Below, piece by piece: positions 4,015 to 29,095 of a stretch of DNA of 29,646 nucleotides. How positions within the stretch are numbered: the first letter of the stretch is position 1; each line of letters begins with the position of its first letter. The DNA lies in contig NW_006159661.1 of the NCBI RefSeq assembly GCF_000334495.1, positions 808,147 through 837,792 of the forward strand, in the 5' to 3' direction. Made by a program: the position numbers and the translations under genes. The notes below the pieces were generated by a model. That model made no database searches. It saw only the letters and a list, made by a program, of their open reading frames with translations, and was not told the origin of the DNA. The DNA comes from Tupaia chinensis. Taxonomy: Eukaryota.

Positions 4015-4254
4015 TAATGTTAGTTTTTCAATATAGTTTGGTTCATTTATTCCTCAGCTCATTCCCAGAAGGATGGCAATAGCTGGGTATGCTGTATTAA
4101 CTCCTCTGCCTAGTCTATGGGAGAAGGGCTGATCAGGAGCCCAGACAGGAAATGGGAGCATGGTTTTCTGAAGTTATTATCTCCCCAACTATAAAACCAA
4201 AGTACTTTGCGAAGGGTTGAGAAAATATGTTTTCTTTTTAAAAAGTTTACTTCT

Positions 4255-4506
4255 TGGGACCAGCACATGGTGTAGTGGTTATGTCACTGGACTCCCACAT
4301 GGGCGACTGCGGTTCAATTCCTGGACTTAGTGACTTGAAACTTACACCAGGCACATGTGCATGTGGGCCCAAGATCCCAGGAGGAGAATGGAGGAGAAGG
4401 GATTGTGACGTGGCCACCCCATCTTCGGGGTGATGTCTCACTTTCCCTTTCACTGTCTCTCTTGGGTGAGCGCACACACCCTAAGGCAAAAATCTCTTTA
4501 AAAAAA
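4255..4506 (+). mobile_element. tRNA-derived SINE, long subtype
   Basis: Family structure. Confidence 0.8.
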
Positions 4507-4514
4507 TTTACTTC

Positions 4515-4715
4515 TTTATTTCTCCCATAACAGACACAGAGAGATGGACACTCCCTATAAGGCCTTGATGCCACAACCCACTTCCAGTCCCAGCCAGTCC
4601 AGGCACACATGTGCATGTCAGGCAAGCTTGGGGAGGCCTTGGGACTCAAACGAGGGACCCTTCCCTCGCAGGTCCAGCTGCACGATCAGTCACCACCACC
4701 TCAACTAAGAAACAT
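4515..4715 (-). mobile_element. Divergent SINE-derived segment
   Basis: Resembles the family in reverse orientation but is highly diverged. Confidence 0.4.
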
Positions 4716-5832: not shown

Positions 5833-5923
5833 CTTATGGTTCTACACCACATTTTTATAAATGTATGAATATTTTCATCAAGGAGACAATTGCTTTTCTT
5901 TTTTAAAAAATTTATTTGCCAAG

Positions 5924-6182
5924 ACCAGTAGTTAGCGTAATGGCTATGTTGCTGGAGTCCCATGTAGTCAACCATGGTTCGAGTCCTGGATCCAGCGGCT
6001 TAAACTCATGCCAGGCACATGTGCGTGCGTGCCCAAGATCCCAACAGGAGAATGGAGGAGAAGGGATTGTGGCGTGGCCATCCCCCCTGGGGGTGATTTC
6101 TCGCTTTCTGTCTGTCTCTCTCTGTCTTTCTGGTGAGTGCATGTGCCCTATAGCAAAAACCTCTCCAAAAAAAAAAAAAAAG
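5924..6182 (+). mobile_element. tRNA-derived SINE, long subtype, with about 17-bp TSD (aaaaatttatttgccaa)
   Basis: The direct repeat flanks the element at about 5907-5923 and 6183-6199. It inserted into the tail end of the neighbouring minus-orientation copy. Confidence 0.8.
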
Positions 6183-6192
6183 AAAAAAATTT

Positions 6193-6225
6193 ATTTGCCA
6201 AAGGTGCATATGCAGAGAGTCGGAG

Positions 6226-6668: not shown

Positions 6669-7514
6669 CATTATCATCCTGTATTGAATCACAATTGGGT
6701 TAAGTCAAAAGAGATATTATTGAGTGATTACTACACTTTCTAAAGCTTTGTGGATGTTGGGTTTGGAATATGTTTGATTGGATGGTGTGTCCCTGTCATG
6801 AGTGTGACAGAAAGATGGGGAGTAGACAGATCCGTGCAGTTGGGTGGCTTTACTGTTCATGGAGCACTCACTGGGTGCTGAGCGCTGTGCTAAGTACATT
6901 TAAGATTTTCTTTTTCAACTTAACGAAGAAAAAGAGCCTCTCAAAACATAAAGAAAATCCAGGTCTTTCCAATTTTTTGAGGGTCTTGGATTAATACATG
7001 ATAAGTGCCAAATAGGTAACAAACTTGTTATAGCTTAAAAGTATAATTATAACTAATTAATAATGGTAAGATTAAAAATGATAATGTATGCAATTCATCT
7101 GGAGAGATTGTGGGAAGCCCTCATGCTGAGGGTCATCACAAATGGAGGCCCTGGCTCATGAGGCCTGTGTCTCTTTCCACCTCACCTTGTGTCATAGGCC
7201 ATTGGCATGGCATTGTCATTAACAATCAGAGCAGAAATAACTTTAAGTTTCTTTCTCCTTCAAAGAGAGAACCAGGCACTCCTTAAAGGGTCTTCAGGAC
7301 ACCATCCGCCCCAATCTCAGCCATGCCTGGCTCAAGGGCACACATGTACCCAACACATTCAGAGAGCTCTCTGGATGGGAACCCATAACCCTCGCAAATG
7401 TGTCAGTGTCACAGTGCTGTGTTACTACTGTGCTAATGCCCAACCCCCTACGTGTAACTTCTTTAATGTGTCAATAGAAATAAAATAATTTAACCATGAA
7501 TTAACAATACATAC

Positions 7515-7610
7515 CCTTTTCTCAACCGCTATGAAGCTTGTAAATTGTGTTATGAGAGAGTTTTCTTTACTGAGTTTAATAATCAGAGATTTCAAGATTT
7601 CTTTCTTCAT
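7515..7610 (-). CDS. VWA5-family gene exon (MKKEILKSLIIKLSKENSLITQFTSFIAVEKR)
   Basis: Acceptor ttttgttttattctatcctag|ATG and donor AAAAGG|gtatgt. 96 nt. Aligns to VWA5A DKKDALNLSLESGVISSFTAFIAINKE. Confidence 0.75.
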
Positions 7611-7694
7611 CTAGGATAGAATAAAACAAAATCATGTCCTGTTTTATTTACTTCAAGTCCTTTGTATGTGACCAATTAAGAGTGTATTAAATCA

Positions 7695-7938
7695 GAACCA
7701 GCAGACGGTGTAATGGTTGCGTTGCTGGACTCCCATAGTTGACCATGGTTTAAGTCCTGGACCCAGCAGTTTAAAATTCATGCTGGGCATGTGTGCGTGT
7801 GTGCCCAAGAGGAGACTAAAGGAGAAGGGATTGTGGCATGGCCATCTCCCCTGGGAGTGATTTCTTGCTTTCTGTCTCTGTCTCTCTGGTGACCACATGT
7901 GCTCTATAACAAAAATCTCTCTTAAAAAAAGAAAAAAA
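7695..7938 (+). mobile_element. tRNA-derived SINE, long subtype, with 16-bp TSD (agagtgtattaaatca)
   Basis: Flanking direct repeats at 7678-7693 and 7938-7953. Confidence 0.85.
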
Positions 7939-8689
7939 GAGTGTATTAAATCATCTAAAAAAGTATTTCACTAGGACAAGTAAATCACTTAAAAATTAGT
8001 ATTTCAAACTAAATATTGAACCAGCATCTTGCCTAAACATTTTATGTAGGTGACTCAGTGTTGCCTGCAAAATGGCATTAACCGATTTAGCTAAAACAAT
8101 AATTTGTGTTTATACAGCTCTCCTGGTTTACAAGGAGCACTGACGTGCGTGAGCTTCCTTATCCTTTCACAGTCTGGGGTCCCCATTTAATGCCAAGGAG
8201 TTGGAGAGGCAGAGTGACTTGTTCAGGATTGTTTGAGTCAGGGCTAGTCAGGTACTCCTCCTGCCCCCGCCTCACCCCAAGATAAAAAGGCCTTGAGCAA
8301 AACAACATGAAGGCTGCTAATGCAAGGGCTGTCGAGGCAGTGAGAGCACAAGATCACTTGTCACCTGCTGTGACTGTGAGGACACCAGGCTGCTGTGCGG
8401 CACACTGGACCTTCTTTAGGGAATGGCATTGGTAATGAGAGACCCGCTGGACCCTCGTGGTGGGCTGACTGAGCAGAATCCCCCGCCAGGATCCTTCTCA
8501 GCACAGGGGAGGGGGAGCAAGGCGGGTTTTGGCTCTACTCGTGTCCTCAAGCAGGACGCCACTGTCCTCACCTGAGCTTCTGCATCAGGAGATGGGAACA
8601 CTAGCATGACAGCATGGGAGAGCCAAGACTAGTCTCCCACGAGCACTTAGCGAGTGTTCTCTGAGCCCTCCTCCAACTTTGTTCCATGG

Positions 8690-8800: not shown

Positions 8801-9350
8801 GTGCTCTTCAGGCAGGAGAAAGAAATGGGAGTGGGTAAGGGGGCTGGAGCATCTGCCCATGTAGCCGGATAGAGAAACCCATCAGGGTGGAAAAATTCCC
8901 CACCCAAGGTGATATAAGCAGATTAATGGGGGGATGTCCAGCTGATTAAGCCACATCTGATAGAGCCCGTGAGACTGAGCACAATCAGTGGGCCCAACCA
9001 ATGGTCAACCAACGCTACTTAGATTAAAAATTATAAATCTCACAGAATGTAGCTGCTGGGGCCTTCTGAGCCATTCTTTCTCTATCCGCTCAGGTCCACT
9101 CCTACCTCCTGGGAATGTACTTTCACTTTTACTTAATAAACTACCTTTTCCTTTTGATATTGGCTTGTTTTGTTCACTTTTTGGTTCAAAACAGCAGGAA
9201 CATGGATATCATCGCCAAAGCCATCTGGCAGCACTCTGACACCGCAATCTTCTCTATCCAGCTATTCTCAGGTTACATTTCCATAAATAAATTCATTTAA
9301 GAATGATCGAGAACAATGTATAATAGTTCTTTTTTATGTATAGAACTAAC

Positions 9351-9431
9351 CTCATGATTTGTTGCATTTTCATGGAGAATGCCATCTTCGTAATCTCTGA
9401 TTAGAGCTCGTGCTGTTAGTTTGTGAATCAT
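9351..9431 (-). CDS. VWA5-family gene exon (MIHKLTARALIRDYEDGILHENATNHE)
   Basis: Acceptor ttttttctcctttgctacttcaacacag|ATG and donor CATGAG|gttagt. 81 nt, phase 0. Aligns to VWA5A TIHRLAAKSLLQTKDMGLRE. Confidence 0.7.
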
Positions 9432-9491
9432 CTGTGTTGAAGTAGCAAAGGAGAAAAAATTACAGTGACTTCTAAGTAAAGACTTATGTAG

Positions 9492-9762
9492 GGAACAAGC
9501 AGTTAGCATAATGGCTATGTCGCTGGACTCCCACGTAGCCAACCGCGGTTCGCGTCCCGGACCAGGTGGCTTAAAACTCACGCTGGGCGTGTGTGCGTGC
9601 GTGCCCAAGATCCCGAGAGGAGAATGGAAGAGAAGGGATTGCGGCGTGACCATCCCCCCTGGGCGGTGATTTCTCGCTTTCTGTCTCTGTCTCTCTCTGT
9701 CTGTCTGGCGAGCACACGTGCCCTATAGTGAAAATCTCTCTCAAAAAAAAAAAAAAAAAAAA
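9492..9762 (+). mobile_element. tRNA-derived SINE, long subtype, with 13-bp TSD (aagacttatgtag)
   Basis: Near-consensus copy with an A21 tail. TSD at 9479-9491 and 9762-9774. Confidence 0.9.
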
Positions 9763-9837
9763 AGACTTATGTAGACCATTTTAAAATTGAGATATAATTT
9801 GCATATAATAGAATTCACCCTTTTCTTTTTTTAAATA

Positions 9838-10459: not shown

Positions 10460-10699
10460 CTGAAATGGGAAAAAGTGAATTCCTAATTAGCTTTCTACTT
10501 CACGGTGTCTTGGTTAACTTAACAGCATTTTTTTCAGTGATTTCCTCTCCTCTTTCAATGGGAGTTAGAAGATTCCCCAGTGGCCCTGCTGTTTTCTCAG
10601 GAGAAAATCTGCCAATGAGAGAGAGGAAAGAACAAAAGGAAAACTATTAGGAAAATACATTGGTCTTCCCAACGTAGAAAAAGCTTTGCTGCTTCTTAC

Positions 10700-10870
10700 C
10701 TGGGTACAATGAGGAATAAATCCATAGACAAGGAGTCGATCGTTGTGGAATAAGGACTGCACCTGGGCTGGGGCCTGCAGGGGCTCCTGGGCATTTGCAC
10801 TGAATTGTTGCCACTTGACGGAGACAGAGTGGCAACTTGGAGAACGAACCCTGGTCATTTGGTCTTCTAT
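10700..10870 (-). CDS. VWA5-family gene exon (IEDQMTRVRSPSCHSVSVKWQQFSANAQEPLQAPAQVQSLFHNDRLLVYGFIPHCTQ)
   Basis: Donor CCCAG|gtaaga is strong. The acceptor was chosen as ctctctataaatag|ATA to keep phase 0 and is less certain. 171 nt. Aligns to VWA5A ...LKRSLQPVVEDVSLSWHLPPGLSAKMLSPEQTVIFRGQRLISYAQL. Confidence 0.6.
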
Positions 10871-12436: not shown

Positions 12437-12971
12437 CTGATCACAATTCACATGTTTTAATTTTCAAGAAATATTAGAAACATTTGTGAAGTACACGTTA
12501 ACAACGTTGGGAAGCTCAAAACTCAACAGAAGATTGAAGAGACATCTCATGAAGAAGAATTTAGTCTTCTGTGGCTGAGGTTGAATATAAAACTGATAAC
12601 ACACAGAAAGCAACTCCAGGATTTTTGCTTAATTTAATCTTACACAAATCCAAGGACCTCTTTATCTTTCACAACAGAAAAAAAAGTAGAAATGCTTGAT
12701 TTCTAGATTATTTTAGGAGGAAGTCGATGGTTTTTTAAAAAGCCCCAGAAATATTAGAATACTAGTAAAGATATCAACCTATTTTCGGTGAATGTCAAAG
12801 TTATCTGAATCTGAGCCCCGAGGTCAAGATTGCACAGAGTTAAAGTCTTTGTCTTAACATATGATATATATTTACATAGTAAAAGGTATAAAAAAGTGAC
12901 TCTCTAACATAGAACATGTCTGATATTTAAATAAGTATCGCAGTATTTCTCATTAACAATTGTACAATTAC

Positions 12972-13211
12972 TTTTTTTTTAGAGGTTTTTGCTATAAGGC
13001 ACGTGTGCTCTCCAGAAAGAGAGACAGATACAGAAAGCGAGAAATCACCCCCCAGTGGGGATGGCCATCCTGCAATCCCTTCTCCTCCATTCTCTCGAGA
13101 TCTTGGGCACGCATGCACATGCACCTGGTGTGAGTTTAAGTCTGGGACTCGAACCATGGTCAACTACACGGGAGTCCAGCGACATAGCCATTATGCTATC
13201 TGCTGGTCCTC
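12972..13211 (-). mobile_element. tRNA-derived SINE, long subtype, with about 18-bp TSD (aacaattgtacaattact)
   Basis: TSD at 12954-12971 and 13213-13230. Confidence 0.85.
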
Positions 13212-13340
13212 AACAATTGTACAATTACTAAAAACTCTTTTCTTAGAGGGAATCCTACTAAAATATTAAAGAAACAAGTGAAAAAAGCTCTTTCAAAAAA
13301 AGAGCTTAAAAAAGAGAACGAGAGCGAGCTTAAGGGCGGC

Positions 13341-13602: not shown

Positions 13603-13912
13603 CAGGACCAGCAGTTAGTGTAATGGCTATGTCGCTGGACTCCCACGTAGTGGACTGTGATTTGAGTCCCGGACCTGGTGGCTTAAACTTACACCGGGCA
13701 CATGTGCGTGCATGCCCAAGATCCCGAGAGGAGAATGGAGGAGAAGGGATTGCAGTGTGGCCATCCCCCCTGGGGGGGTGATTTCTCGCTTTCTGTCTCT
13801 CTGTCTCTGTCTCTGTCTGTCTGGCGAGCGCACGTGCCCTATAGTAAAAAAACAAAAACAAAAACAAAAAAACAAACAAACAAAAAAAACACAACTCTCC
13901 AAAAAAAAAAAA
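13603..13912 (+). mobile_element. tRNA-derived SINE, long subtype, with extended A-rich (CAAAA)n tail
   Basis: Near-consensus copy. The left breakpoint of the tandem duplication lies at about 13780 inside it. Confidence 0.85.
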
Positions 13913-13944
13913 CCGAATTCACCATTATTTAAAAATTTTTAAAA

Positions 13945-14200
13945 ATTCTTTCTTATTCATGACAGAGCATGTGCACACACCCTTGAGAGTAAAACAGAGA
14001 GAGAGAGAGATAAGTACCCTCCACAGAATCTGGTCATGACAAGAGCCTCTTCTTCCAGTCCTCCATACTGTAGACCTTGGGCACTTGAACATGTACCAGG
14101 TGTTTCAGGCTGACTGGCCAGGAATTCAAACCTCAGTTGCCACATGGGGTCCAGCTTCTATCGAGTAGCACATTACTGCTACGCCACAGAGCCATCCCCA
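13945..14200 (-). mobile_element. tRNA-derived SINE, long subtype (duplicated at 16337-16592)
   Basis: Reverse complement of the family. Confidence 0.75.
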
Positions 14201-14339
14201 GATTTGTTTTTATCCTGAAAATTAACTGGCTCTGATTATAACATTGACCAGACACTGCTTTAGACAGAGTTGGCATTTTATGGATGAGTGAGCAAAGCTT
14301 ATGGGAATTTCTTTGGGATCCTGGCTGTGGTTGCCCAAA

Positions 14340-14455
14340 GTCACAGCTAGTGAAAATGGAATTGAAGTATACAGTTTATTTTGGTGCAAAAAAAATTGAA
14401 ATCCATGCATGATTTTTTATAATAGGCATTTTCCATGAATGTTCTACAGATCCCT
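14340..14455. mobile_element. Tc1/mariner-like DNA transposon fragment (duplicated at 16732-16847)
   Basis: ITR-like tattttggtgcaaaaaaaattgaaatccatgcatgattttttataataggcattttccatgaa. Relatives at 15150-15215, 15880-15935, 20640-20745 and 22895-22965. Confidence 0.4.
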
Positions 14456-14552
14456 TATATCAGCTTTGAACCTTTCAAAAGTCCTGTGCAGACCAGCGAA
14501 GAGACCAACTAGCGGGCTCTCCATATCTGTGCGACCAGATTGCGGGACTTAC

Positions 14553-14740
14553 CCGACACCGCAGGTGAACAGCCTGGTGTGATGGGCATTTTTTTTCACG
14601 AGCTGCAAGGTCAGGCTCTCGTCCTGGAGGTGCCCATCAGATACAAGGAGAATGTTCCGCAACCCTTCCGAAGGGTACAGTAAACCTAAATATCGCAGTG
14701 TTTTCCAGAAGTCTGTGTTCCCCATGCTAGGGGTAGCAGA
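14553..14740 (-). CDS. VWA5-family gene exon, vWA TDG...GIG segment, duplicate copy 1
   Basis: Acceptor ttccttcatttccttcag|TCT and donor GG|gtaagt. 188 nt (62 codons + 2). Aligns to VWA5A ...GGTEILAPLQNIYRGPSIPGHPLQLFVFTDGEVTDTFSVIKEVRINRQKHRCFSFGIGEG. Contains an A8 homopolymer (gtgaaaaaaaatgcc). Confidence 0.8.
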
Positions 14741-14845
14741 CTGAAGGAAATGAAGGAAAAGGTTATTTACTTCTTTTTGAGTATACATGCCACTGACTGC
14801 AGTAATTTACTGAAGCATTTCTTCTGCTGTTTTTTACATTTTCAA

Positions 14846-15061
14846 AGGTTTTTACCATAGGGTGCACGCACTCACCAGAGAGAGACAGAGACAGTGAAAT
14901 GGAAAGTGAGAAATCAACCTCAGAGGTGGCAGAGGGATGCGACGTTGCAATCCCTTCTCCTCCATTCTCCTTTTCAGATTTTGGGCACACGTGAATGATT
15001 AAATTACAGTCTTCCATGTAGAAGTCTAGTGCCTTAACCACTATGCCAAGTACTGGCCCCC
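14846..15061 (-). mobile_element. tRNA-derived SINE, long subtype, internally shortened (duplicated at 17238-17453)
   Basis: Reverse complement of the family. Confidence 0.65.
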
Positions 15062-15376
15062 ATGAAGCATGTTTTCTAGTGAGGGTTAGGTATATACCGC
15101 CATTGAAAAGAAGGATTTTTCTTTTTTTTTCAAATTATACATTTGTGGAAAAATTATACATGGGTCTTCAAAAAGTCCAAGGAAAATGCATAATTATGAA
15201 AAAAAATCTATACATTAATTTCATTTTTCCACAAATATTTTGAAGCCCCCTGTACTATATTATTTTATTTTAGTACATGTTACAGAGTAATTATAATATC
15301 ATTACTTGGAGCTTATTTGCTTATTTAGTTTTTTTTTTTAAGGATCATTTGTTTAATTTAATTCATTAATTTTTTA

Positions 15377-15612
15377 GAGAGGTTTTTGCTATAGGGCACA
15401 TGTGCTTGTCAGAGAGACAGAGACAGAAAGCGAGAAATCATCTCCCTTGGGGGACAGTAGGCTGCAATCCTTTCTTTTCCATTCTCCTCTCAGGATTTTG
15501 GGCATGCACACACACACACGTGTTGAGTTTTAAGTCACTGGGTCCAGGACTTGAACCATGGTTGAGTACATGGGAGTTCAGTGCATAACCATTATGCCAT
15601 CTGCTGGTCACT
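15377..15612 (-). mobile_element. tRNA-derived SINE, long subtype (duplicated at 17769-18004)
   Basis: Reverse complement of the family. Confidence 0.8.
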
Positions 15613-15642
15613 TAATTTTATTTTTTATTATTGTTTTTAAAT

Positions 15643-15787
15643 TTGCTATAGGATACACATGCTCACCAGAGACAGACACACACAGAGAGAGGGAAAGTGA
15701 GAAAGCAAGCTTCCAGGTCCAAGAACTGAACTGCAGTTGGCCACATGAGAGTCCAGCACCTCAACCACTATGCCAACTGCTGGACCT
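15643..15787 (-). mobile_element. tRNA-derived SINE, short subtype (duplicated at 18035-18179)
   Basis: Reverse complement of the short subtype. Confidence 0.75.
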
Positions 15788-16171
15788 GTGCTTTTTTAGT
15801 TTTCAAAGAATCATGAGGAGACTTCAAGAAGTTTGTGAGAAAAGTATAATTAATAAATGAATTTTAGTGCCAAAATATTTTTTTTTTTTCACAGCATGCA
15901 TTGTCCACAAACTTTTTGAAGATCCCCACATTTTATACTTATAGGAAGAAGTGTCCCATCAAAGCATCCCTGGGTTTGCCAGGCTGGACTGTGGGGGTGC
16001 CTGGTCATACCCAACTTGCTCTATTTTGAGAGGTAAAAAAGAAGGGACAGAAGAAAACTTTCCAAAACTGTTAATGGTACTTGCATTTGGGTGGTAGGGG
16101 TATGGATGATCTTTATCTCTATAGTTTTAAATTTCTAATTCTCCTTTAGTGAGTTTATATCACTTTTATGA

Positions 16172-18583
16172 GATTTCTCGCTTTCTGTCTCTCTGTCTCT
16201 GTCTCTGTCTGTCTGGCGAGCGCACGTGCCCTATAGTAAAAAAACAAAAACAAAAACAAAAAAACAAACAAACAAAAAAAACACAACTCTCCAAAAAAAA
16301 AAAACCGAATTCACCATTATTTAAAAATTTTTAAAAATTCTTTCTTATTCATGACAGAGCATGTGCACACACCCTTGAGAGTAAAACAGAGAGAGAGAGA
16401 GATAAGTACCCTCCACAGAATCTGGTCATGACAAGAGCCTCTTCTTCCAGTCCTCCATACTGTAGACCTTGGGCACTTGAACATGTACCAGGTGTTTCAG
16501 GCTGACTGGCCAGGAATTCAAACCTCAGTTGCCACATGGGGTCCAGCTTCTATCGAGTAGCACATTACTGCTACGCCACAGAGCCATCCCCAGATTTGTT
16601 TTTATCCTGAAAATTAACTGGCTCTGATTATAACATTGACCAGACACTGCTTTAGACAGAGTTGGCATTTTATGGATGAGTGAGCAAAGCTTATGGGAAT
16701 TTCTTTGGGATCCTGGCTGTGGTTGCCCAAAGTCACAGCTAGTGAAAATGGAATTGAAGTATACAGTTTATTTTGGTGCAAAAAAAATTGAAATCCATGC
16801 ATGATTTTTTATAATAGGCATTTTCCATGAATGTTCTACAGATCCCTTATATCAGCTTTGAACCTTTCAAAAGTCCTGTGCAGACCAGCGAAGAGACCAA
16901 CTAGCGGGCTCTCCATATCTGTGCGACCAGATTGCGGGACTTACCCGACACCGCAGGTGAACAGCCTGGTGTGATGGGCATTTTTTTTCACGAGCTGCAA
17001 GGTCAGGCTCTCGTCCTGGAGGTGCCCATCAGATACAAGGAGAATGTTCCGCAACCCTTCCGAAGGGTACAGTAAACCTAAATATCGCAGTGTTTTCCAG
17101 AAGTCTGTGTTCCCCATGCTAGGGGTAGCAGACTGAAGGAAATGAAGGAAAAGGTTATTTACTTCTTTTTGAGTATACATGCCACTGACTGCAGTAATTT
17201 ACTGAAGCATTTCTTCTGCTGTTTTTTACATTTTCAAAGGTTTTTACCATAGGGTGCACGCACTCACCAGAGAGAGACAGAGACAGTGAAATGGAAAGTG
17301 AGAAATCAACCTCAGAGGTGGCAGAGGGATGCGACGTTGCAATCCCTTCTCCTCCATTCTCCTTTTCAGATTTTGGGCACACGTGAATGATTAAATTACA
17401 GTCTTCCATGTAGAAGTCTAGTGCCTTAACCACTATGCCAAGTACTGGCCCCCATGAAGCATGTTTTCTAGTGAGGGTTAGGTATATACCGCCATTGAAA
17501 AGAAGGATTTTTCTTTTTTTTTCAAATTATACATTTGTGGAAAAATTATACATGGGTCTTCAAAAAGTCCAAGGAAAATGCATAATTATGAAAAAAAATC
17601 TATACATTAATTTCATTTTTCCACAAATATTTTGAAGCCCCCTGTACTATATTATTTTATTTTAGTACATGTTACAGAGTAATTATAATATCATTACTTG
17701 GAGCTTATTTGCTTATTTAGTTTTTTTTTTTAAGGATCATTTGTTTAATTTAATTCATTAATTTTTTAGAGAGGTTTTTGCTATAGGGCACATGTGCTTG
17801 TCAGAGAGACAGAGACAGAAAGCGAGAAATCATCTCCCTTGGGGGACAGTAGGCTGCAATCCTTTCTTTTCCATTCTCCTCTCAGGATTTTGGGCATGCA
17901 CACACACACACGTGTTGAGTTTTAAGTCACTGGGTCCAGGACTTGAACCATGGTTGAGTACATGGGAGTTCAGTGCATAACCATTATGCCATCTGCTGGT
18001 CACTTAATTTTATTTTTTATTATTGTTTTTAAATTTGCTATAGGATACACATGCTCACCAGAGACAGACACACACAGAGAGAGGGAAAGTGAGAAAGCAA
18101 GCTTCCAGGTCCAAGAACTGAACTGCAGTTGGCCACATGAGAGTCCAGCACCTCAACCACTATGCCAACTGCTGGACCTGTGCTTTTTTAGTTTTCAAAG
18201 AATCATGAGGAGACTTCAAGAAGTTTGTGAGAAAAGTATAATTAATAAATGAATTTTAGTGCCAAAATATGTTGAAATGTATGCATAGTTTTTTTTTTTT
18301 TCACAGCATGCATTGTCCACAAACTTTTTGAAGATCCCCACATTTTATACTTATAGGAAGAAGTGTCCCATCAAAGCATCCCTGGGTTTGCCAGGCTGGA
18401 CTGTGGGGGTGCCTGGTCATACCCAACTTGCTCTATTTTGAGAGGTAAAAAAGAAGGGACAGAAGAAAACTTTCCAAAACTGTTAATGGTACTTGCATTT
18501 GGGTGGTAGGGGTATGGATGATCTTTATCTCTATAGTTTTAAATTTCTAATTCTCCTTTAGTGAGTTTATATCACTTTTATGA
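16172..18583. repeat. Tandem segmental duplication, unit 2 (about 2.41 kb)
   Basis: Near-identical to unit 1, except an 18-bp indel (gttgaaatgtatgcatag at about 18270, missing from unit 1 at about 15878). It ends at ...cacttttatga|atcatataaag. Confidence 0.9.
16945..17132 (-). CDS. VWA5-family gene exon, vWA TDG...GIG segment, duplicate copy 2 (SATPSMGNTDFWKTLRYLGLLYPSEGLRNILLVSDGHLQDESLTLQLVKKNAHHTRLFTCGVG)
   Basis: Identical to 14553-14740, offset +2392, inside tandem duplication unit 2. Same acceptor ttccttcatttccttcag|TCT and donor GG|gtaagt. 188 nt, phase 0 to +2. Confidence 0.7.
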
Positions 18584-18884: not shown

Positions 18885-19095
18885 ACCGGTTTAAATCCTT
18901 TGTATACATTAGCTTGGTCCTCACAACAGCACCGTGAGGTAGGGACTATACCTCTCAGGTGACACAGGAAACTGAGGCACGCAAAGTTCAAGCAGCCCTC
19001 CCAAGGGCAACACACAGAGCTTGTGGGCAGCACAGTTGTGGCTCTAGAGTTCTTGTTCTGAAGCTTCCCACGGGGCTACCTCTCACTCCACAGGT
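18885..19095 (+). mobile_element. MIR (mammalian-wide interspersed repeat) fragment
   Basis: Contains the MIR core ...caggtgacacaggaaactgaggcacgcaaagttcaagcagccctcccaagggcaacacacag... Confidence 0.7.
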
Positions 19096-19175
19096 CAGGG
19101 CGGGCCTCAGCAGTCACATAGAGCATGCTCATTTGAAGAAGAAATCGCGCCTAGGGCTGGAGCCACAGTGCTCAC

Positions 19176-19371
19176 CTGTGCCAAACTGGACAAGGTTCAC
19201 TCTTTGCTTCTCACCCACCAACGACAGCGCGTATAAGGCGATTTTCTTGGCCTGCATGAATGTCACACCCTCCATGGAATTGGAGCAGTCGAGGCAAATA
19301 ATCACTTCACTGCTGTTGGCTAGCTCAGGGAGGGCAAGGTCAAGATCAGGTTGAAAGACAAGCATGCAAGC
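19176..19371 (-). CDS. VWA5-family gene exon, start of vWA domain with MIDAS motif (ACMLVFQPDLDLALPELANSSEVIICLDCSNSMEGVTFMQAKKIALYALSLVGEKQRVNLVQFGTG)
   Basis: Acceptor tttcatttttctcctttcag|GCT and donor ACAG|gtgagc. 196 nt, phase 0 to +1. Contains D-C-S-N-S-M (DxSxS MIDAS motif). Aligns to VWA5A ...MVSFYPNIPEDQPSNTCGEFIFLMDRSGSM...NIYGFG. Confidence 0.8.
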
Positions 19372-19789
19372 CTGAAAGGAGAAAAATGAAACTTATCAGA
19401 ACTTAAACTGGAAAATATCTACTTGCAGAATTCTAAAACTTTCTAGTAAGGTAAACTAATGCTGTAAAAACAAAAAGAATAAGACAGCCTACGAGTTCAA
19501 ACAACAAGATAGGCTACTAGCTCAAATAAAAAGTAGAGAGTCAGAGCTGGGGTTTCCAGTGTGTAGGACATAAATTCTAGAAAGGTCAAGAATTAACATA
19601 GAATTAATTCTGAAAAATCATATAGCATCAACGTTGCCTGTAGAATGAGTAAATAATGTCACACACCTATACACACTATTCCTTAATGAATGCTGTTATG
19701 CTAACACATACCTTGGTTTTATTAATTAACTGATAGTTAAAGTATAACTACTATCAAGTAAGTTTTAGTTTATTTATTTATTTAATTTG

Positions 19790-21494: not shown

Positions 21495-22360
21495 TGAAAT
21501 GTCAGTTTTAGAAGACCATTATCATAGCAGGTATCCTTCTGAAATTCTAAAGTTGATTTACATAGTCAAATTTAAGTAAGTCGAAGACAATCTCATTCTC
21601 TGGATCCAAAGATTGTAGATCCATGTATTCAGTTAGAGTTATCTGGAGACAGGAAAGGACAGCAAATAATCACAGGATTATTTTAACATCAATTTTATTT
21701 ATCAGACAATACATTCACATGGTTTAAGAGTGAAATAATGGTATCAGCAACCTCTAGTAAGAAGGTCTGTCCCGACCCTTAGATCTCCTCATACCACTTG
21801 CCAGAGATAGCAAATCACTTTGAATATTCGAGCTATTTCTCTGGCAATGCCTCCAAAGTTTCAAATAATAATTTTCTTTGGGTTGCTTTCTTTCTTTCTT
21901 TTAAAAGTTTTCTTTCTTTCTAAAAGTTTTCTTTCTTTCTTTTTTTTTTTTTAAGTTTATCTATGTATTTCCTTCTTGAGGAAGAAAGGGGGAGAGAAAG
22001 AGAGATAACCTTAACAGAATCTTCACACTATAATCCTGTACTGTTTGATAATAAAATTCATGTTAAAATAAAAGATCTTAAGAAGTCAGAGATTCACTAA
22101 CCTTTTGTTTCAGTTTGTGTGTATCACTGGAAATGGATTCAATCACATATGGCATCTCTATAGACATAGTCAAGGAGAAGCTACCAAAAATGAAGAAAAG
22201 TTAGCCTAATATGTTAAGTTTCTATCTCAAGTTGTTTCAAATAATTTAAAATGAATATTTAAACCATAAAATAAAACTAATGTCCATTGAATGATTGACA
22301 AGTTTTTGTAAATTACAGCGCTTGTGTTACAAGTTTGTTGAGTGTTGTGTATTTTTTTTT

Positions 22361-22377
22361 GGGGGGGGGGGGGGGGG
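22361..22377. repeat. G17 homopolymer
   Basis: Run of 17 G preceded by T9, abutting the poly-A side of a minus-orientation SINE. Confidence 0.9.
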
Positions 22378-22600
22378 AGAGATTTTTTGCTAGGGTGCAT
22401 ATGCTTGCCAGAGACACAGAGAGAGAAAGTGAGAAATCAGCCCTCAGGAGGATGGCTATGCCACAATCTCTTCTCCTTCACACTCCTCTTGGGATTTTGG
22501 GTACACAAACACACATGCTTGGTGTGAGTTTCAAGTCCCTGGAACTGGGATTCAACCATATGGGAGTTCAGGGCCTTAACCACTATACCACCTGCTGGCC
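22378..22600 (-). mobile_element. tRNA-derived SINE, long subtype
   Basis: Reverse complement of the family. A G17 homopolymer abuts its left end. Confidence 0.75.
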
Positions 22601-23331
22601 TCATGATCGACAAGTTTTAAATTTACTAACCTTTGCTTTGTTCCTATTTCCTTTATACAAATCTTCTCTACTGTATCCTGTTAAAAGAAAAAAAATATAT
22701 ATATATACATGACTGACTATTAGTTTCAGAATGAGACTCTAAACTGAACATCATCTTAGCAAGGCCACAACTGACAGCAGCCATAAAACAGCTGGTTTCA
22801 CTTCTACGCAGTGGAATACACACATACTATACACATTGTATATGGGGGACTTCAGAGAGTTTGTGGGAAAATGGAATTTTAGTACAAGCTTATTTTAGAA
22901 CAATAAATTGAAATCCATACATTATTTTTTTGTAATATGCATTTTTCATGACCTTTTTGAAAACTATATATGTGTGTGTGTATGTGTGTGTATTTACACA
23001 GCAAGTAGTCTGGAAGGACATAAACTAAAGCGTTCATCAGTGGCTCTTTCTGGGCAATGGAATTAAGGATAATTTAATTTTCTTCTTCTTTTGGCTTATT
23101 TGTACATGATGAACATGTAGTACAGATATACAATTTTTTGAATGACCAGACAGAATAAAAGGTTGAACATGTAAGTATCTTTTATTCTTTTAATTTTATA
23201 GCCATCATTTACATGTGTATAAATGCATAAATGCCAATAGAACTGACTTTCTGCCACAGACATTAGATCTCTTTTCTTCCCTATGCATACAGACCCACCT
23301 AAGTGCTTCTTCCAATCTGAAGCATACAAAC

Positions 23332-23496
23332 CTGAAGGTTTTCATTCAAAGCCTTGTTCTGTTGCCAGGGTGCCACGGTGGCGGGCATGAAGAAGACAGC
23401 AACGGAGCCTTGGATGCTGAGTTCTGTGATGTAGGTAATTTTGATGAGAACTTTAGCCTTAGGGGGCAAGTTTCCAACACTTACAGTAAAAACATC
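23332..23496 (-). CDS. VWA5-family gene exon, VIT domain part (DVFTVSVGNLPPKAKVLIKITYITELSIQGSVAVFFMPATVAPWQQNKALNENLQ)
   Basis: Minus-strand acceptor tttctgtttcag|GAT and donor CAG|gtttgt. 165 nt, phase 0 to 0. The peptide aligns with the remembered VWA5A VIT segment RDVFSCNVGNLQPGSKAAVTLKYVQELPLEADGALRFVLPAVLNPRYQ. Confidence 0.75.
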
Positions 23497-23620
23497 CTGA
23501 AACAGAAACATATGACTTGCTCACATCCCCAAATCATATCCTTTCTTTGCAAGTTAACCACTCAGTATTCTTTACACAACTTGAACCATAATCTGCAAGT
23601 TCTTCAGGAAATGATAATCG

Positions 23621-24599: not shown

Positions 24600-25128
24600 T
24601 TAAGTTTGCTATAAGGCATGTGCACCTGCTGGGGGAGGAGGGGAAGAGAGAGAGAGAGATTGAGAAAGTGAGAAATCAACCCCTAGGGGGAATGGCTACA
24701 CCATGATCCCTTCTCTTTTGTTCTGTTGGGATTTTGGGCATGCATACACATACGTCTGTTATGTTTTTCTTTTTTTTCTTTTGGAGAGGTTTTTGCTATA
24801 GGGTGTGTGTGCTCATCAGAAATACAGAGAGAAACAGAGAGACAGAAAGTGAGAAATCACCCACCAGTGGGATGGCCACGCCGCAATGCCTTCTCCTCCA
24901 TTCTCCTCTTGGGATCTTGGGCATGCACCACGCGCATGGGCCTGGCTTGAATTTAAGCCACTGGGTCTGGGACTTGAACCGCGGGCGACTACATGGGAGT
25001 CCAGCAACATTACGGCAATTGCTGATCCCGTGCCTGTTGTGTTTTTCAAGCTGCAAGGTCTGGGACTTGAACCACAGTCAGCCATATGGGATCGAGCTGC
25101 CTTAGCCATCATGCCATTGGTGGGCTCA
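24600..25128 (-). mobile_element. Cluster of long-subtype SINEs (partial 24600-24762, full 24783-25028, partial head copy 25029-25128)
   Basis: Reverse complement of the family. The head segment recurs in tandem. Confidence 0.7.
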
Positions 25129-25309
25129 TATCCTTTTTTTTTTTTTTTTTTTTAAGTTATTTAGTTTTCTTTTAACGGAGTATTGATAATTACCATAATG
25201 TGACTAGCTAAGGCAGAAAAAAAGAGGTTGAATGTATCTTTTTGCTGATACCTACATTTTTGAGACCCTCAAAAATCCCTGACTATGCTCATCATTTCAG
25301 CCCTTTTTT

Positions 25310-25451
25310 TTTTTAGAGAGAGGTTTTTGCTATAGGGTACATGTGCTCACCAGAAAGACAGAGACCGAGAGATATAAAGTGAGAAATCCCCCTCCCCCCG
25401 GAGGATGGCCACGCCACAATCCCTTCTCTTCCACTCTCCTCTTGGGATCTT

Positions 25452-25492
<41 letters not shown>

Positions 25493-25590
25493 TGCACCCG
25501 GCGTGAGTTTAAGCCACTGGGTCGACTTGAACCACAGTCGACCACATGGGAGTCTAGTGACATAGCCATTACGCCAATTGCTGGTCCCCA
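25310..25590 (-). mobile_element. tRNA-derived SINE, long subtype, with internal (CA)17
   Basis: Reverse complement of the family. A (CA)n tract lies at 25454-25488. Confidence 0.8.
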
Positions 25591-27500: not shown

Positions 27501-27773
27501 TTAAAAAAAAAAAAAAGGCAAAGATGCTAGAAACAGCCCAGTGCTGGTAGTGTGCACTGGATGATGCAGCTACTTGGAAGGCTGAGGCCTCCTGGGAGGA
27601 TTGGGTTCAATTTTCAGTCCAGTTAGGCATGAAGGTGCATGCTTTAGACCTGGCGACTCAGAAGGCTAAGGCAAGAGGATTGCAAACGTGTGGCCAGTGT
27701 TCGTAACAGAGGAAGACCTGTCTGAAAGAGTCAGGCATGATGGTATAGTCTTAGAATTTCAGCTACTTGGGGG

Positions 27774-28207
27774 ATCAGCAGATGATGTAATGATTACTCA
27801 CATGTAGTAAACTGTGGTTTGAGTCCTGGACCTGGCAGCTTAAACTCACACCAGGCGCATTTATGTGTGTGCCCAAAATTTCAAGAGGATGGGGCTAGCA
27901 GTTGGTGTGGTGGTTAAGGGCACTGGACTCCCACATGACCAACCATGGTTCGAGTCCCGGACCTGGTGGGTTGCTTTCTCACTCTCTATCTTACTCTGTT
28001 TCTCCCTGGTCAAATTAAAATAAATAAATAAATAAACATTAAAAATTAAAAAAAAAAAAAAGTTCAAGAGGAGAATGGAGAAAAAAGGGATTGCAGTGTG
28101 GCCATCCCCTCTGTGGGGTTATTTCTTGCTTCCTGTGACTCTGTCTCTCCAGATAGCACACGTGCCCTATAGCAAAAATATCTCTCTCAAAAAAAAAAAA
28201 AAAAAAA
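27774..28207 (+). mobile_element. Long-subtype SINE nested in the 7SL-derived element, itself carrying a nested short-subtype SINE
   Basis: Head at 27774-27889, central domain and tail at 28062-28207. Possible TSD cagctacttgg and cagatacttgg. Confidence 0.7.
27891..28061 (+). mobile_element. Short-subtype SINE nested inside a long-subtype SINE, TSD ttcaagagga
   Basis: Direct repeat at 27880-27889 and 28063-28072. Tail (aaat)n followed by A13. Confidence 0.85.
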
Positions 28208-28335
28208 GGAATTGCAGATACTTGGAAAAATGAGGCAAGAATATTGGATGTACTGAGACCAAGTCTTTAAAAAAAAAAGTAGAAACAAACACATTTTCAT
28301 AGTTGATGAATATTTTTAAAAGTAGGGGGGTGGGG

Positions 28336-28597
28336 AACCAGCAGTTAGCGTAATGGCTATGTTTCTGGACTCCCACGTAGTCGACCGCGGTTCGTGTCCC
28401 AGACCCGGTGGCTTAAAACTCACGCCAGGCGCGTGTGCGTGCGTGCCCAAGATCCCGAGAGGAGAATGGAGGAGAAGGGATTGCGGTGTGACCATCCCCC
28501 CTGGGGGTGATTTCTCGCTTTCTGTCTCTATGTCTCTCTCTGTCTGTCTGGCAAGCGCACGCGCCCTACAGTGAAAATCTCTCCAAAAAAAAAAAAA
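28336..28597 (+). mobile_element. tRNA-derived SINE, long subtype, near consensus
   Basis: Sequence is ccagcagttagcgtaatggctatg...gcgccctacagtgaaaatctctcc followed by A14. Confidence 0.85.
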
Positions 28598-28599
28598 AG

Positions 28600-29095
28600 T
28601 AGGGGGGGGGATGTGTGCTCACTAGAGAGACAAAGAGAAAGAGAGAAAGAAAGAAAACACCCCCAGTGGGGCATGGTCAAGCCACAATCCCATCTCTTTA
28701 CTTCTCCTCCCCATCAGGATCCTGGGCATGCACACACACCTGCCTGGCATGTTTTCAAGATGCAAGGGCCAGGAACCAGCAGTTAGCGTAATGGCTATGT
28801 CGCGGGACTCCCACGTAGTCGACCGCGGTTCACGTCCCGGACCCAGTGGCTTAAAACTCACGCCGGGCGCGTGTGCGTGCGTGCCAAGATCCCGAGAGGA
28901 GAATGGAGGAGAAGAGATTGCAGCGTGACCATCCCCCCTGGGGGGTGATTTCTCGCTTTCTGTCTCTGTCTCTCTGTCTGTCTGGAGAGCACACGCACCC
29001 TATAGCAAAAACCTCTCAAAAAAAAATTAAATAAATAAAAAGATGCAAGGGCCGAGATTCAGACTACAAATGGCCACGTGGGATCCAGGTTTTTT
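28600..29095 (-). mobile_element. Long-subtype SINE (minus) split by a nested insertion (28600-28770 and 29054-29095)
   Basis: 3' part at 28600-28770. The head part resumes at 29054 (gagattcagactacaaatggccacgtgggatccagg). Confidence 0.65.
28771..29040 (+). mobile_element. Long-subtype SINE, near consensus, nested in the previous element with 14-bp TSD (aagatgcaagggcc)
   Basis: TSD at 28757-28770 and 29040-29053. Confidence 0.9.

Follow-up and report, generated by a model that had tools for sequence, protein, structure and literature searches.

A tree-shrew SINE family with LINE-1-type insertion sites that probably accumulated over a long period in PARP4 introns

The window (the whole stretch of 29,646 nucleotides of Tupaia chinensis DNA analysed here) is very probably best explained by a lineage-specific, non-autonomous SINE, the tree-shrew Tu-III/TUS, that was mobilised by L1 and left about 40 insertions in PARP4 introns over a long period. 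BLAST of the focal copy (9479-9774) against the window returned about 50 related segments on both strands, and with long and short consensuses derived from the window the family covers 8,808 bp, i.e. 29.7% of the window, in 49 blocks. These blocks include five inside an exact tandem duplication, which are non-independent, and a few halves split by nested insertions, so that approximately 40 independent insertions are left once duplicated and split blocks are discounted. The units are dispersed, multi-copy and non-coding, with sizes of about 150-170 bp (short subtype) and 250-270 bp (long subtype). An earlier note on this DNA had proposed a dispersed SINE family, and this is borne out by the A and B boxes of a Pol III promoter, tails rich in A, target-site duplications (TSDs) and LINE-1-type insertion sites. 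That Pol III transcribes the elements, that LINE-1 drives them and that they are identical with Tu-III/TUS is inferred.

The focal interval consists of a 251-bp repeat body followed by 21 A and is flanked by a perfect 14-bp direct repeat, with the following parts:

9478-9491, plus strand: 5' TSD of the focal copy, AAAGACTTATGTAG
9492-9742, plus strand: body of the focal copy, a long-subtype SINE of 251 bp with 18 CpG retained
9504-9514, plus strand: Pol III A box, TAGCATAATGG (consensus TRGCNNAGTGG)
9547-9557, plus strand: Pol III B box, GGTTCGCGTCC
9573-9669, plus strand: central domain of about 97 bp, missing from the short subtype
9670-9708, plus strand: CT-rich (polypyrimidine) module, also present in the short subtype
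9709-9742, plus strand: 3' box CGAGCACACGTGCCCTATAG, missing from the short subtype, then pre-tail TGAAAATCTCTCTC
9743-9763, plus strand: pure poly(A) of 21 A, the final 3 A lying within the TSD
9761-9774, plus strand: 3' TSD of the focal copy, AAAGACTTATGTAG

Direct repeats were sought by a script that took the best repeat whose first unit ends at most 3 bp from the 5' end of the element and whose second unit follows the body within 60 bp. Among random pseudo-elements (n=1500) a score of at least 13 occurred once and a score of at least 14 never, and family members without a TSD scored 2-8 on the same measure, which together show that the TSDs are real. They were present on all six copies listed in the earlier note (the first six lines below), at lengths of 14-18 bp, five perfect and one with 14 of 15 positions matching, just as that note had claimed, and on three further copies:

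5923-6183, plus strand (5905-6201 with TSD): long copy; TSD of 5924-6182 AAAAAATTTATTTGCCAA, 18/18; tail A15 then GA
7695-7938, plus strand (7678-7953 with TSD): long copy of an older subfamily; TSD AAGAGTGTATTAAATCA, 17/17; tail A7GA5
9492-9762, plus strand: focal copy; TSD 14/14; tail 21 A
12972-13211, minus strand (12955-13229 with TSD): long copy; TSD AGTAATTGTACAATTGTT, 18/18; tail only 8-9 A
27891-28057, plus strand (27875-28072 with TSD): short-subtype copy, 13% from the short consensus; TSD of 27891-28061 AAAATTTCAAGAGGA versus AAAAGTTCAAGAGGA, 14/15; tail AT-rich, of AATAAA type
28771-29040, plus strand (28757-29053 with TSD): young long copy; TSD AAGATGCAAGGGCC, 14/14; tail A9TTAAATAAATAAA
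28334-28598, plus strand (28318-28607 with TSD): young long copy, unlisted in the earlier note; TSD 13/13; tail 10-14 A
4256-4500, plus strand (4240-4516 with TSD): old long copy, about 20% diverged; TSD 15/16
24764-25035, minus strand (24756-25047 with TSD): long copy; TSD 13/14

Tails of the long subtype range from A8 to A21, and those of the short subtype are AT-rich and end in A-runs. The long pure A-tails once ascribed to these copies are thus confirmed in part.

The LINE-1 endonuclease prefers to nick at 5'-TT/AAAA, a preference known from L1 target-primed reverse transcription, and the insertion sites fit this motif: TT stands directly 5' of the TSD at seven of nine sites, T at eight of nine, and the TSD begins with A in eight of nine. 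At the focal copy, the sequence directly 5' of the TSD reads ...taaGT, which gives a nick site of GT/AAAG. The insertion signature, together with the literature, points to LINE-1 as the partner. L1 accounts for 18.5% of the tree-shrew genome according to the literature, and tblastn with human L1 ORF1p and ORF2p found no L1 coding remnant in the window.

The same observations bear on the reading that the repeats spread by segmental or tandem DNA duplication rather than retroposition, with the flanking direct repeats being incidental. One exact tandem duplication is indeed present and has copied five SINE fragments. Outside this block, however, the flanks are unique and each TSD directly abuts the 5' end and the A-tail of its own copy, the sites of insertion conform to the nick motif of L1, and the copies lie in both orientations with widely different divergences, so that we regard this reading as highly improbable. 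In retroposition by LINE-1, which we prefer, Pol III would transcribe master copies from their internal A and B boxes, LINE-1 ORF2p would capture the poly(A) end of the SINE RNA and nick genomic TT/AAAA sites, and the RNA would be reverse-transcribed in place (target-primed reverse transcription), leaving TSDs of 13-18 bp. Insertions would have gathered in the window over a long period, with younger copies sometimes nested in older ones.

The promoter elements are arranged much as in a tRNA gene. Most TSD-bearing copies have their A box at about position 11-16 and their B box at about position 53-59, a tRNA-like spacing. The A box reads TGGCGTGGTGG or TAGCGTAATGG, and the long consensus has the latter at about position 13. 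The B box stands at about position 56 and is a perfect GGTTCGAGTCC in the short and older long consensuses, which in the older copies perfectly matches GGTTCGANNCC, and GGTTCGCGTCC in the youngest subfamily. The label "tRNA-derived" would follow from the two boxes, their spacing and the literature. The head might instead stem from another Pol III template or from a promoter-like sequence that arose de novo. Such an origin would agree with the blank results of ARAGORN, which at default settings reported no tRNA in the window or the long consensus, and of the Rfam tRNA model, which failed to match a 1-kb stretch with three copies even when E values of up to 10 were allowed. On the other hand, an A box and a perfect B box stand at tRNA-like spacing, relaxed ARAGORN (80% stringency) folds positions 6-80 of the short consensus into a degenerate 75-nt cloverleaf with an abnormal anticodon loop, there is no 7SL or 5S match, and the dominant tupaia SINE is classed as tRNA-derived in the literature. 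We therefore consider a non-tRNA head unlikely and retain the tRNA-type label.

The two subtypes differ in more than one module. The long consensus has five modules. Its head (about 80 nt) is followed by the central domain (about 95 nt), then by a CT-rich stretch, the 19-nt 3' box GAGCGCACGTGCCCTATAG plus CAAAAACCTCTC, and poly(A). The short consensus, built from eight copies, has a related head and the CT-rich stretch followed by GGTCAAATTAAAATAAATAAATA..., without central domain and 3' box. According to the earlier note the long subtype equals the short one plus an inserted central domain. The central domain is indeed extra, but so are the 19-bp 3' box and the pure poly(A) tail, which stands where the short form has an AT-rich AATAAA tail, and the heads are only 85% identical (68 of 80 positions). 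Moreover, the extra central segment measures about 94-97 bp and not 68 bp; the 68-bp string given before maps to 9597-9665. An intermediate variant (15621-15787, minus strand) combines a short-type head and a 3' box with an AT-rich tail and has no central domain, so that the two forms differ by at least two indels as well as by head substitutions. The heads of the older long copies 11476, 19975, 3431 and 374 are closer to the short consensus. AATAAA repeats occur in all short copies, and some tails (3132, 11900, 21335) contain T-runs that are inconsistently aligned. SINEs of the T+ class carry an AATAAA signal plus a Pol III terminator in the tail.

Comparison of the SINE consensus with MIR revealed no similarity beyond the 14-nt B box, and thus no central domain of the CORE-SINE (MIR) type. 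The first 50 nt or so of the central domain align with the reverse complement of the CT-rich module plus 3' box at a score of 15, against 7.8 +/- 1.4 in dinucleotide shuffles with a maximum of 14 in 1000. The predicted fold of the young consensus (-110.6 kcal/mol, z = -4.2) pairs the start of the central domain with the 3' module, and when 18 copies were folded jointly with RNAalifold, the stem that joins the 3' box to the beginning of the central domain was retained in part, with a covariation term of only -0.97; covariation is expected to be nearly absent as the copies are decaying pseudogenes. It is conceivable, though we consider it doubtful, that the central domain of the long subtype is an inverted partial copy of its own 3' module, which would form an imperfect RNA hairpin of about 60 bp and might have aided amplification.

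Nesting was examined by removing the insert and one TSD, which restored a continuous alignment to the consensus for both hosts. The host of the short copy 27891 is an old long copy (about 27771-28207), whose halves (27771-27889 and 28073-28207) are 74% identical to the consensus, and 28771 sits in an old antisense long copy (28607-28770 and 29054 to about 29110, 71% identical). The earlier note had described several of its copies as nested in older family members; this holds for these two, but the other four lie outside family members. A further copy not listed there, 1461-1725, is located in the tail of the short copy 1280-1458. That the short copy 27891 was inserted in an older long copy implies that the two forms overlapped in their periods of activity.

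Against a CpG-corrected consensus built from window copies and containing 22 CpG, individual long copies stand as follows (divergence, CpG retained):

28771: 5.3%, 19/22
28334: 5.6%, 18/22
9492 (focal copy): 6.5%, 18/22
13604: 6.7%, 10/22
1461: 9.2%, 9/22
5924: 9.8%, 7/22
12972: 10.4%, 7/22
24790 (copy 24764-25035): 12.3%, 9/22
25318: 13.2%, 8/22
7695: 18.1%, 3/22

Older copies are 17-25% diverged, and the overall span in the window is from 3.6% to more than 25%. The three youngest copies (9492, 28334, 28771) belong to a young subfamily marked by GGAACC, CTTAAAACTC, GTGACC and the B box GGTTCGCGTCC. Its consensus was made from five sequences, these three and two external copies (L001 and L002), and the divergences from it (28334, 3.6%; 28771, 4.5%; 9492, 4.8%) are biased low given that each copy contributes to the consensus. 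Outside CpG transitions the three are 1.2-2.4% diverged. If a neutral rate of 2-4 x 10^-9 per site per year is assumed, the most recent insertions probably date back a few million years.

These values bear on the choice between accumulation over a long period and the view that the SINEs and the LINE mobilising them were still moving very recently, or are moving even now, with TSD-bearing copies being near-identical and possibly polymorphic. Features in favour of recent activity are confined to the youngest copies, i.e. the 18-19 of about 22-24 CpGs kept by the three, their low divergence from the young consensus and in non-CpG positions, and the pure 21-A tail of 9492. However, the six copies that the earlier note called near-consensus and near-identical are only 69-91% identical in pairs, exceeding 90% only for 9492 versus 28771, and lie about 5-18% from the window or short consensus, four of them at 10-18%. 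That note had itself named divergence of more than 10% between copies as evidence against its reading, and 14 of the 15 pairs differ by more than this. None of the approximately 40 copies is less than 3.6% diverged even from the young-subfamily consensus, which was built partly from the copies themselves. Nor do the perfect AT-rich TSDs of 14-18 bp prove a very recent insertion, as they are expected at a neutral divergence of 4-5% (the chance of zero mismatches in an 18-bp TSD pair is then about 0.24), and a single 30-kb window cannot prove that a family is still active. The window thus offers no sign that the family was active very recently or still is; we regard such activity as rather unlikely and prefer accumulation over a long period.

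The family is almost certainly the already described tree-shrew tRNA-derived Tu-III/TUS, a match made by host, abundance and head type. In the T. belangeri genome no lineage-specific elements are more abundant than TUS and Tu-III (Tu-SINE2/3), which account for 21% of it (PMC4408798). The family studied here likewise has a tRNA-type Pol III head, is the most abundant SINE (29.7% of the window versus 15-21% genome-wide in the literature), occurs in two main forms (short and long) where the literature names two (TUS and Tu-III), and comes from the same host lineage, its peptide being found in two T. chinensis proteins. Work on Tu-III/TUS is reportedly that of Nishihara 2002 and Fan et al. 2013, 2019. 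A literature search with distinctive 13-24-mers of the SINE gave no match.

The two T. chinensis proteins are a ferritin light chain-like and a GLTSCR2 protein (P0097, P0101), in which an aberrant segment corresponds to the translated SINE (head plus start of the central domain), with 38 of 54 and 27 of 34 residues matched, respectively; in both models it probably reflects a Tu-III copy that was exonised or mis-annotated. Megabat, mole, pangolin, pika and xenarthrans had also been considered as hosts of the SINE and were set aside in view of these two proteins. When the antisense SINE translation was used as a protein query, it retrieved 65 ORFs, all on contigs shorter than 1 kb from ENA metagenome assemblies, and a second search with other reading frames returned mostly ENA contigs and two Tupaia chinensis proteins, giving about 90 contig ORFs in total. 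The two contigs that were looked up, k141_74161 and k141_13059 of ERZ27259875 (L001 and L002), contain SINE copies 94% identical to the consensus. The SINE contigs of ERZ27259875 are presumably host-DNA contamination from a tree-shrew sample. L002 starts with a Nextera adaptor remnant, TATAAGAGACAG.

A comparison beyond the host comes from another mammal (L003, Logan run SRR28250801), whose orthologous PARP4 intron is only 73-77% identical, too distant for a close relative, and does not hold the copy 22376-22600: window positions 22306-22603 correspond to L003 982-997, with roughly 300 bp missing in L003. This empty site is consistent with a lineage-specific insertion of 22376-22600.

BLAST comparison of the window with 17 repeat consensuses (Alu, B1, B2, ID, CAN, AfroSINE, rabbit C, VES, SOR, ERI, MAR1, PRE-1, ERE, DAS, CHR-2, MIR and MADE1) detected none of 15 other mammalian SINE families there; all that came back was a single MIR remnant and matches to low-complexity CT sequence. 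The closest parallels in layout are the rabbit C repeat and the carnivore CAN SINE, which share the modular order of tRNA head, internal region, CT-rich stretch and A- or AT-rich tail and are also L1-mobilised, as the tupaia family appears to be. Their CT-rich stretch and AATAAA-type tail are 76-77% identical to the short subtype over 60 nt of low-complexity sequence, whereas heads and central regions of the consensuses have no significant similarity and the host orders differ. Primate Alu and rodent B1/B2 share the inferred mechanism, in which a Pol III transcript with poly(A) undergoes target-primed reverse transcription by ORF2p at TT/AAAA, and also the 13-18 bp TSDs, the decaying CpG-rich young copies and the genic enrichment. 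In contrast, Alu and B1 derive from 7SL RNA, while the tupaia family carries boxes of the tRNA type and does not resemble 7SL.

Judged from its reading frames, the window lies inside the PARP4 (vault PARP) gene, with the SINEs in PARP4 introns. The candidate exons are:

23302-23520, minus strand: PARP4 VIT domain frame
19132-19392 and 14552-14806, minus strand: PARP4 VWA domain frames
10568-10870, about 9300-9432 and about 7428-7610, minus strand: further PARP4 exons

By eye these frames are about 80-93% identical to the human PARP4 sequence. A protein search with the PARP4 exons found only distant matches, the best from a mammal being a Panthera onca PARP4-like protein at 70% identity. The focal SINE runs antisense to PARP4, with about 59 bp between its 5' end and, downstream of it in PARP4, a 3' splice site (window 9421-9491) that reads cacag/ATGATTCACAAA on the minus strand, with the exon starting at 9432 and an ORF at 9297-9653. 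This distance places the focal insertion close to the branch-point region.

The tandem duplication mentioned above is exact and head-to-tail, with a unit of about 2.39 kb (13780-16170 equals 16172-18582, with no mismatches and one 20-bp indel). It starts inside the SINE copy 13607-13872 and holds the VWA exon 14552-14806, the second copy of which is at 16944-17198. Either the segment was duplicated very recently or the assembly is at fault here.

Outside the SINE family, only one MIR remnant and one mariner-MITE-like hairpin were found as repeats in the window. The degraded MIR remnant (18918-19014) is 70% identical over 103 nt to a MIR consensus and overlaps an ORF-rich stretch beside the PARP4 exon 19132-19392. 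The 73-nt hairpin at 29231-29303 matches the mir-548 model weakly (35.7 bits, against a gathering threshold of 90) and is probably a mariner-type MITE; the mir-548 family derives from MADE1. Rfam microRNA "hits" in the window were dismissed, being merely inverted SINE pairs or low-complexity sequence. Two dinucleotide tracts look like SINE-seeded microsatellites, namely (AC)19.5 at 25454-25492, expanded from a GTGTGCGTGCGTG motif within the SINE copy 25304-25588, and (GT)17.5 at 1755-1789 at the boundary of a SINE fragment.

The copies 9492, 28334 and 28771 are possible presence/absence markers within Scandentia, and the intermediate variant 15621-15787, along with the nesting of a short in a long copy, informs the relationships among subfamilies. 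Beyond annotation the result adds little and amounts to ordinary repeat biology: the window is tree-shrew genic DNA saturated with SINEs.
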